This document shows positions 2,698 through 2,979 of a stretch of 26,147 nucleotides of DNA, piece after piece. The notes under the pieces were generated by a model. That model ran no database searches and had not been told where the DNA came from. It saw only the letters and a list, made by a program, of their open reading frames with translations. Both the position numbers and the translations under genes were made by a program. The stretch comes from Escherichia coli (GTDB lineage: Bacteria; Pseudomonadota; Gammaproteobacteria; Enterobacterales; Enterobacteriaceae), in assembly GCF_003334355.1 (NCBI RefSeq), contig NZ_QOWP01000043.1. One strand, 5' to 3'. Within the stretch, counting starts at the first letter, position 1. Each line of letters begins with the position of its first letter.

Positions 2698-2979
2698 ATG
2701 ATAAGGGACAGGAAAGCTGAAGAGCTGGAGTCAAAAGGGCTATACCGGAGAGCTGCCGCACGATGGATGGAAGTCATGCTGTTATGCACCGAGGACGATG
2801 ATCGGGAATGGATAAAGCGCCGCCGTGAAACGTGTCTGGAGAACGTGAAGCGCCCGCCCGTGAAGGTTGAGGAATTTGGCGACCTGCATAAAGCTGTTAC
2901 CGAAACGCAACACCGCATGGGGATAGCGCAACCGAACGGTAACGCCTTCCGGTTAAATGGCGGCAAGAGGCAAAGGTAG
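2698..2979 (+). CDS. PerC-family-like small transcriptional regulator (93 aa)
   Basis: N-terminus MIRDRKAEELESKGLYRRAAARWMEVM resembles the AEELE.KGLWRRAA.RW motif I recall for PerC/Pch regulators. GAGAGG Shine-Dalgarno 5 nt upstream of the ATG; TATAAT-like hexamer at 2679..2684. Family assignment is from memory, not a search. Confidence 0.55.
   Translation: MIRDRKAEELESKGLYRRAAARWMEVMLLCTEDDDREWIKRRRETCLENVKRPPVKVEEFGDLHKAVTETQHRMGIAQPNGNAFRLNGGKRQR

Follow-up and report, generated by a model that had tools for sequence, protein, structure and literature searches.

A PerC-family protein in the right arm of an EcCIMP1-type island of Escherichia coli: probable action through regulator contacts, beside exchangeable cargo and origin-type repeats

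The described relatives of the protein analysed here are small proteins encoded on horizontally acquired elements, and among them PerC of EPEC, encoded on plasmid pMAR2, and PchA/B/C of EHEC are LEE1 activators, with the activation of LEE1 by Pch being wholly dependent on silencing by the H-NS complex. PchD and PchE do not activate LEE, and overexpressed PchE represses csgD and curli. The pchE gene of O157:H7 Sakai lies in Sp7 (O-island 51), in the order P4-type integrase, AlpA, primase, ssb, pchE and capsid/terminase genes, and Sp7 (OI-51) was related to the E. coli PICIs by Fillol-Salom et al. 2018 (PMC6092414). The biochemistry of PerC and Pch is incompletely understood. In parallel, the proteins of the ANR family, Aar of EAEC and Rnr of C. 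rodentium and EPEC, are small, three-helix proteins that bind AraC-type regulators, H-NS and Ler, and their overexpression leads to LEE repression.

The island closest to ours is EcCIMP1, which Pick, Stadel and Raivio (ISME J 2025, PMC11773190) class as an atypical PICI and which they delimited experimentally by the direct repeats of TCCTATTATC, its att core. Its named integration site is tRNA-Thr, and the helper phage Kapi1 induces its excision and transfer (PMC11773190). In that work, overexpressed EcCIMP1_025 silenced a LEE1-lux reporter in Citrobacter rodentium in a dose-dependent manner, whereas EPEC perC activated the same reporter, and a behaviour like that of the ANR-family repressors was proposed for EcCIMP1_025 (PMC11773190). 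As for replication, PICI origins are made of two iteron sets around an A+T-rich region, located 3' of pri-rep (Fillol-Salom et al. 2018, PMC6092414), and a plasmid maintenance assay was carried out for EcCICFT073 (PMC6092414); the EcCIMP1 paper (Pick et al., PMC11773190) describes neither an origin nor iterons nor paired arrays.

We analysed one stretch of E. coli DNA of 26,147 nt, called the window here, of which positions 1..4688 make up the island portion, that is, the right-hand 4.7 kb of the island. Judging from its sequence, this portion forms the right end of an island (PICI) of the EcCIMP1 type, given that it closes with the att core TCCTATTATC at 4679..4688 on the plus strand and that window 2539-4696 and the right arm of EcCIMP1 are 98.5% identical. 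The horizontal acquisition assumed by the first-pass annotation thus stands on firm ground. Beyond the right end of the island come a yagP/LysR remnant and then paoD (of paoDCBA), and as part of our best explanation the perC island would sit at tRNA-Thr beside the pao operon; no tRNA gene was found within the window, the tRNA-Thr integration site being outside it. The positions of the integrase, AlpA and primase module fall to the left of the window start, and in E. coli AMSCJX02 (locus L001), which is 99.9% identical over window 79-4711, the genes found upstream are those of an HTH regulator, AntA, Ash and a TOPRIM/DUF927 primase. To the right of perC, the backbone of the island carries the genes for a 61-aa hypothetical protein (WP_000188903.1; 3277..3462, plus strand), which co-occurs with perC in many islands, for a 180-aa protein of the pRiA4b ORF-3 family (PF07929; 3583..4125, plus strand) and for a 119-aa hypothetical protein (4118..4477, minus strand), and searches of PADLOC and NCBIfam with the right-arm proteins other than PerC gave no match.

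Several features of these islands are recorded here in their own right. AMSCJX02 has a second, 5.3-kb element between two copies of the att core (L001 16480-21805), which contains two hypothetical genes, an IS3 and an integrase pseudogene; window 4679-4711 has a single core and no such element. Left of the window start, the islands of AMSCJX02 (L001 7821-11275) and of E. coli MP1 (L005 8210-13378) encode proteins annotated for the transfer, ejection or injection of phage DNA and a DUF2824 protein, with no capsid or terminase genes annotated in the same islands, and some of these ejection-type proteins resemble proteins of the helper phage Kapi1 (Pick et al., PMC11773190). Membership in the P4-like satellites was considered and rejected, because the annotation shows no psu, sid or delta gene and because of the atypical PICI classification by Pick et al. 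We also found a motif, TTTCG.GAC(A/C)AGTACGCGC(G/A)CG, which contains the palindrome TACGCG(N0-2)CGCGTA and occurs in three to four copies per island, always on the plus strand. Its copies in the window are at 89-101, 322-334 and 3028-3040 (with a longer repeat, 299-342 / 3006-3050), where they flank the cargo slot and perC, and elsewhere it is present at L001 11837 and at ~4280-4924 of L010-L017; in other assemblies the copies lie in or near an Ash-family gene. The motif may bind a regulator or function as an RNA element.

The perC-family gene itself occupies 2698..2979 on the plus strand, exactly the reading frame that had been called PerC-like from the letters of the sequence, and it encodes from an ATG start a protein of 93 aa, 11.0 kDa and pI 9.6, identical to WP_000617443.1, with the identical DNA carrying the RefSeq label "PerC family transcriptional regulator". 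A GAGAGG ribosome-binding site, read directly in the sequence, is found at 2687..2692 (plus strand), 5 nt before this ATG. The family assignment was borne out by the PerC-family HMM, Pfam PF06069, whose match is significant and near full-length (E 4.1e-30, score 104.3, residues 1-85 on model positions 1-85 of 90), and among the PHROGs the protein hits phrog_994 (E 1e-37), plus several weaker "transcriptional activator" families. In an alignment of 22 sequences, residues A7, L10, E11, K13, G14, Y16, R17, R18 and A19 are invariant. By megablast, the perC region is present in 669/5426 complete E. coli genomes, with the label "PerC family transcriptional regulator" throughout, and these carriers were isolated mostly as commensals, as UPEC or from animals. 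Window 2200-3300 is matched by 100% identical DNA in AMSCJX02 (protein WP_000617443.1), and the translated PerC is identical in L001, L002 and L005, the latter being MP1. Of 88 codons compared between perC and a homologue of 82% identity, 27 show synonymous and 16 non-synonymous differences, which argues for purifying selection on perC.

Around the gene, a scan of 2150-3300 for sigma-70 promoters and intrinsic terminators found none, and the TATAAT at 2679-2684 was rejected as a perC promoter, since it lacks an acceptable -35 and would give a leader of 7 nt. Rfam, run at gathering thresholds on the whole window, showed nothing near perC and returned only IS009 (RF02111) at 11050-11249 (plus strand, 202 bits, E 2e-49), in the chromosomal part and far from perC. 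In locus L013, ssb is preceded by a ribosome-binding-site context near-identical to that of the window perC. The perC alleles are also mosaic: many E. coli share the repeat array upstream of the gene and the first ~28 codons at 97% identity, and after codon ~28 (window ~2781) many of them switch to a divergent 95-aa allele (...ADGDKEREHAANRR...), as in L006 (13165-13452) and L007 (13138-13425), from which the 61-aa, PRiA4_ORF3 and 119-aa genes are also absent. The shared 5' part followed by a divergent allele points to a recombination breakpoint within the gene.

The sole PerC-family protein annotated in the examined part of EcCIMP1 from MP1 is WP_000617443.1, and its gene lies two genes after alpA_1 (EcCIMP1_023); on this RefSeq annotation and gene order, rather than on the deposited sequence, we provisionally equate the window PerC with EcCIMP1_025. 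With this equation, the first-pass description of the protein as an activator does not hold for this allele, given that EcCIMP1_025 silenced LEE1-lux where EPEC PerC activated it (PMC11773190), a result obtained by overexpression in a heterologous host. Of the two targets that had been offered for PerC, cross-talk with the chromosome is plausible, since EcCIMP1_025 alters LEE1, but regulation of the adjacent cassette agrees poorly with the variability of that cassette, as detailed below.

The predicted structure of the protein gives a first idea of how such silencing could come about. The AlphaFold model of PerC, built on the 22-sequence alignment and with a mean pLDDT of 78, shows helices at residues 5-13, 16-29 and 33-50 at pLDDT ~90, plus a weaker helix at 61-73. 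A sequence search of the PDB with PerC gave no usable relative (best E 0.94), and a Foldseek search of the PDB with the model gave MIT/TPR-like helical bundles at best (E 1.2) and no DNA-binding fold. In NCBIfam, residues 5-50 of PerC align to positions 7-52 of 54 of the ANR model NF033650 at 31.1 bits (E 1.6e-7), a borderline score, 0.9 bits below the curated cutoff of 32 bits. The same model aligns to EPEC PerC at 18.2 bits and to PchE at 17.9 bits, and other family members also score more weakly than the window protein; a close homologue of PerC (P0018) was in fact named ANR by one source. Given that the ANR model aligns to all of these proteins, the PerC family as a whole is ANR-like in its N-terminal domain, with the clade of the window protein nearest to ANR.

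From the ANR-like domain, the lack of a predicted DNA-binding fold, the biochemistry of the ANR proteins and the H-NS dependence of Pch, we infer that PerC acts through contact with regulator proteins of the H-NS or AraC family, and not as an operator-binding factor. The protein would be composed of an ANR-related three-helix domain of ~50 residues followed by a conserved basic tail, and it would retune H-NS-controlled genes, LEE1 silencing being the outcome reported for a host that carries LEE; it would not be a dedicated regulator of the divergent cassette. The basic nature of PerC (pI 9.6) may also allow some non-specific or H-NS-assisted DNA binding. Taking everything together, we favour, with somewhat better than even confidence, a joint explanation in which a functional PerC of the PICI backbone acts via regulator contacts, the cassette beside it is cargo, and the repeats between the two are origin iterons.

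The alternative that survives best, which we find doubtful as a whole, concerns the targets of PerC and not its mechanism, and is therefore compatible with the preferred explanation. In it, PerC is a regulator of the island life cycle, co-expressed with the replication module after AlpA induction, that de-silences or times later genes of the island or of the helper phage, with the LEE effect being a side effect of overexpression. The position of the gene speaks for this, as perC is fixed backbone directly after the primase, the ori and ssb or proQ, co-oriented with the upstream gene and overlapping it by 8 nt in some islands; the order primase, ori, (ssb or proQ), perC, PRiA4_ORF3, 119-aa gene, end recurs in other assemblies, and the same primase-to-end order is found at other E. 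coli integration sites. In Sakai Sp7, pchE likewise lies just upstream of capsid and packaging genes, and the purifying selection on perC agrees with a role of its own. In addition, the source names of PerC homologues include Enterobacter, Klebsiella, Citrobacter and Salmonella, genera that are not known to carry LEE as a rule. Given these genera and the conserved position by the replication module, LEE is unlikely to be the native target of PICI PerC, and a role in the island programme, or else in manipulating the host or helper, is a live alternative that is compatible with the contact mechanism. Against a life-cycle role, Pick et al. treat the PICI perC as an accessory gene (PMC11773190).

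Returning to the joint explanation, its second part deals with the genes divergent from perC, which lie in a variable cargo slot (383..2538) of ~37-44% G+C against ~54% in perC. To the left, this slot is limited by a conserved non-coding block (79..382) that is 94-96% identical in L002, L003 and L005, and the genes on either side of the block differ among these three loci. The divergent two-gene arrangement noticed at first pass was confirmed, with both reading frames on the minus strand. Cargo gene 1 (1125..2210) has a longest reading frame of 361 aa, and RefSeq gives it 318 aa with a start at window 2081; it matches phrog_7651 (E 3.6e-139) in an alignment that begins at residue 46, and with both the RefSeq start and the start of the PHROG alignment the 318-aa product is more likely than that of 361 aa. 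Lambdoid phage cdtI has homologues of this protein at 42-44% identity and a Vibrio phage record has one at 35%, and Pfam gave just a weak TubZ-like_C match (E 0.051) for the 361-aa frame. Cargo gene 2 (675..1112) encodes 145 aa and matches phrog_8552 (E 3.6e-54); it has about four hydrophobic segments in a Kyte-Doolittle scan, and its product is a probable membrane protein. Neither cassette protein had a match in PADLOC or NCBIfam.

The distribution of this cassette is very different from that of its neighbour, since 42/5426 E. coli genomes have window 600-2300 and 669 have the perC region. Between genomes, homology stops at window 2539 or 2561, within the repeats, and resumes only at 79-382. 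Upstream of the same or a near-identical PerC there are alpA_1 and hypothetical genes in MP1, D2, CDF6 and O111 RM9322, an Abi-family gene and a hypothetical gene in Z1323CEC0016, 97-3250 and isolate 23, and ssb in CFS3313. With these genome counts, homology breakpoints, varied neighbours and the difference in G+C, the two-gene cassette is, by all sequence indications, cargo that can be exchanged within a variable slot, and perC belongs to the backbone. As the slot holds Abi-family genes in other strains, the cassette at 675-2210 is a candidate anti-phage system.

The third part concerns the repeats between the cassette and perC, an origin-type iteron array at 2541..2661 with six copies of TGAACCAAC, five of them exact and one with a single mismatch. 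Three copies on the minus strand, at 2541 (the one with the mismatch), 2562 and 2583, are spaced by 21 bp; they are followed by a 43-bp A+T-rich spacer (2592-2634, 79% A+T) and by three plus-strand copies in tandem at 2635, 2644 and 2653, which end 36 nt before the perC start. Across all 26 kb of the window, ~0.2 exact copies of TGAACCAAC would be expected by chance. In L001, L003, L005, L006 and L007, the array has an inverted twin (84-89% identity over 88-110 bp) that starts ~25 bp past the stop codon of the primase gene (TOPRIM/DUF927), and the twin was seen in every complete island examined; its coordinates are, for instance, 7078-7195 in L001, 1621-1740 in L003 and 7456-7585 in L005. The EcCIMP1-type islands have in this way two inverted array copies each, 6-8.6 kb apart, which in the E. 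coli islands enclose the cargo slot together with the ejection-protein genes, and in the Salmonella-named loci encoding PerC P0052 bracket proQ, perC and a 989-aa gene, with arrays at 9332-9445 and 16020-16141 in one of them (L014). The satellite phage P4 also has two separated iteron-bearing cis sites, ori1 and crr, and the paired island arrays resemble that pair.

In related islands, the iterons do not follow PerC. The PerC protein P0010, 82% identical to that of the window, is encoded in four loci (L010-L013) in the order primase, gap, ssb, perC, and the iteron in the gap is a different one in each, GTAGGGATAA, TGAGACAAC, TGAACCACC and TGAACCAAC, with PerC identical in all four; the primase of L010 is of a different type, and those of L011-L013 are DUF927-type proteins of 919-921 aa. 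In the P0052 loci (sources: Salmonella enterica), perC comes directly after primase, ori and proQ, and the second inverted array, with the same tail (CACCTTTTTGCTTATaTATATAA), is found ~6 kb further on, away from perC. With four iterons under one PerC, and with arrays placed beside the primase and away from perC, the repeats appear to belong to the replication module and not to PerC. The window array would then be the second, inverted copy of the island's origin-type element, with a predicted origin function, and it is most probably bound by the TOPRIM/DUF927 primase-helicase of the island rather than by PerC; this perC-proximal copy could fire, could enhance replication like crr of P4, or could be inert.

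Two further points on the array were looked into. A clean link between iteron type and divergence of the primase C-terminus was rejected as too loose, although it is suggestive, with primase identities in alignment columns 851-900 of 84-94% between loci with the same iteron and of 66-77% between loci with different ones. The idea that the island of E. coli isolate 23 (L008), located between yicC and dinD, lacks the array altogether was also rejected, as it keeps two iterons of the left set and has lost ~106 bp of the remainder, so that two iterons are fused to the perC ribosome-binding site (L008 12855-13018). That island has a different integrase, no DUF927 primase, and the same ejection-gene/Abi/perC right arm, and its array loss gives weak support to relaxed selection on the array where the cognate primase is missing.

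A more far-reaching picture can be drawn from these data, and we regard it as improbable in its entirety. PerC proteins would be an island- and phage-borne, C-terminally extended branch of ANR that retunes H-NS- and AraC-controlled transcription on behalf of the satellite, with the LEE effects as by-products; the two inverted origins would bracket an exchangeable packaging/cargo module, and perC, lying directly under an array bound by the initiator, would have its expression coupled to the replication of the island.

The opposite view, present in the first pass as a repeat operator next to perC and the cassette, is that PerC is a DNA-binding activator that switches on the divergent cassette through the TGAACCAAC array, and the data leave it very little room. 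The geometry is indeed suitable, since the genes are divergent across a 487-616 bp intergenic region with a dense repeat array, and each of the three cargo types seen has a minus-strand gene, divergent from perC, as the one nearest to the array. However, the cassette accompanies perC in too few genomes (42 vs. 669), unrelated genes are neighbours of an identical PerC, four different iterons stand upstream of one PerC protein, the array is duplicated beside the primase gene and lies far from perC in the P0052 loci, and no DNA-binding fold is predicted for PerC. What may be kept of this view is a generic effect of PerC on any cargo occupying the slot. Equally hard to sustain is the idea that perC has lost its function, or is losing it, as a passenger of a degraded island remnant, which could invoke the lack of an integrase gene in the right end within the window (with an integrase pseudogene further right in L001) and of a consensus promoter upstream of perC in the scan of 2150-3300, but which is opposed by a frame intact and identical in many genomes, by the excess of synonymous over non-synonymous changes against the 82%-identical homologue, and by the activity of EcCIMP1_025, equated with the window PerC, when expressed (PMC11773190).

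In summary, the perC gene was already annotated and the protein equated with it already assayed, and three points are of use for annotation. This PerC allele should not be labelled a virulence activator, given that the published assay gave silencing, and for the repeats beside it an annotation as replication-origin iterons is preferable to one as operator. In the variable slot of this phage satellite, a kind of place where anti-phage genes often occur, the cassette is one cargo among several. The conservation of perC with the replication module, together with its homologues in genera not known to carry LEE normally, suggests that the real target of PICI PerC may lie elsewhere. Modest by-products are the presence of the origin-type array in two copies and the resemblance of the PerC family to ANR.

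Compared with the known systems, EcCIMP1 of MP1 shares with the window the identical 93-aa PerC, the layout of the right arm and the att core, but has alpA_1 (EcCIMP1_023) and hypothetical genes upstream in place of the cassette encoding 361/318 aa and 145 aa; a second island (MarR, vat) follows its att core on the right, where the window continues directly into the yagP remnant. With the PICI origins (PMC6092414), the window array shares the two iteron sets around an A+T-rich spacer; the position of those origins, directly 3' of the primase gene, is that of the inverted twin in five loci, whereas the window copy is inverted and 7-8.6 kb from the primase gene. EPEC PerC belongs to the same Pfam family, is 37% identical over 75 residues and shares the motif KA..LE.KG.YRRAA.RW, which in the 93-aa window protein reads KAE.LE.KG.YRRAA.RW at the N-terminus as in the PerC/Pch family, and it is likewise a small protein of a horizontally acquired element, as are PchA/B/C; its C-terminal tail is different, its ANR score is 18.2 vs. 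31.1 bits, and the effect reported for EcCIMP1_025 is the opposite of the LEE1 activation by EPEC PerC and EHEC PchA/B/C. PchE of O157:H7 Sakai is closer, with 54% identity over 76 residues, and like window-type perC its gene lies downstream of primase and ssb in an island of the P4-integrase/AlpA type, although pchE directly precedes capsid and terminase genes that the EcCIMP1 type lacks. Finally, Pfam places the window protein in PerC, and, unlike the ANR proteins, which have three helices and <10 kDa, this PerC has 11.0 kDa, a conserved C-terminal extension of 40 residues and a fourth helix; even so, its three-helix N-terminus aligns to 46/54 positions of NF033650, and the LEE repression caused by overexpressed ANR proteins matches the phenotype reported for EcCIMP1_025.
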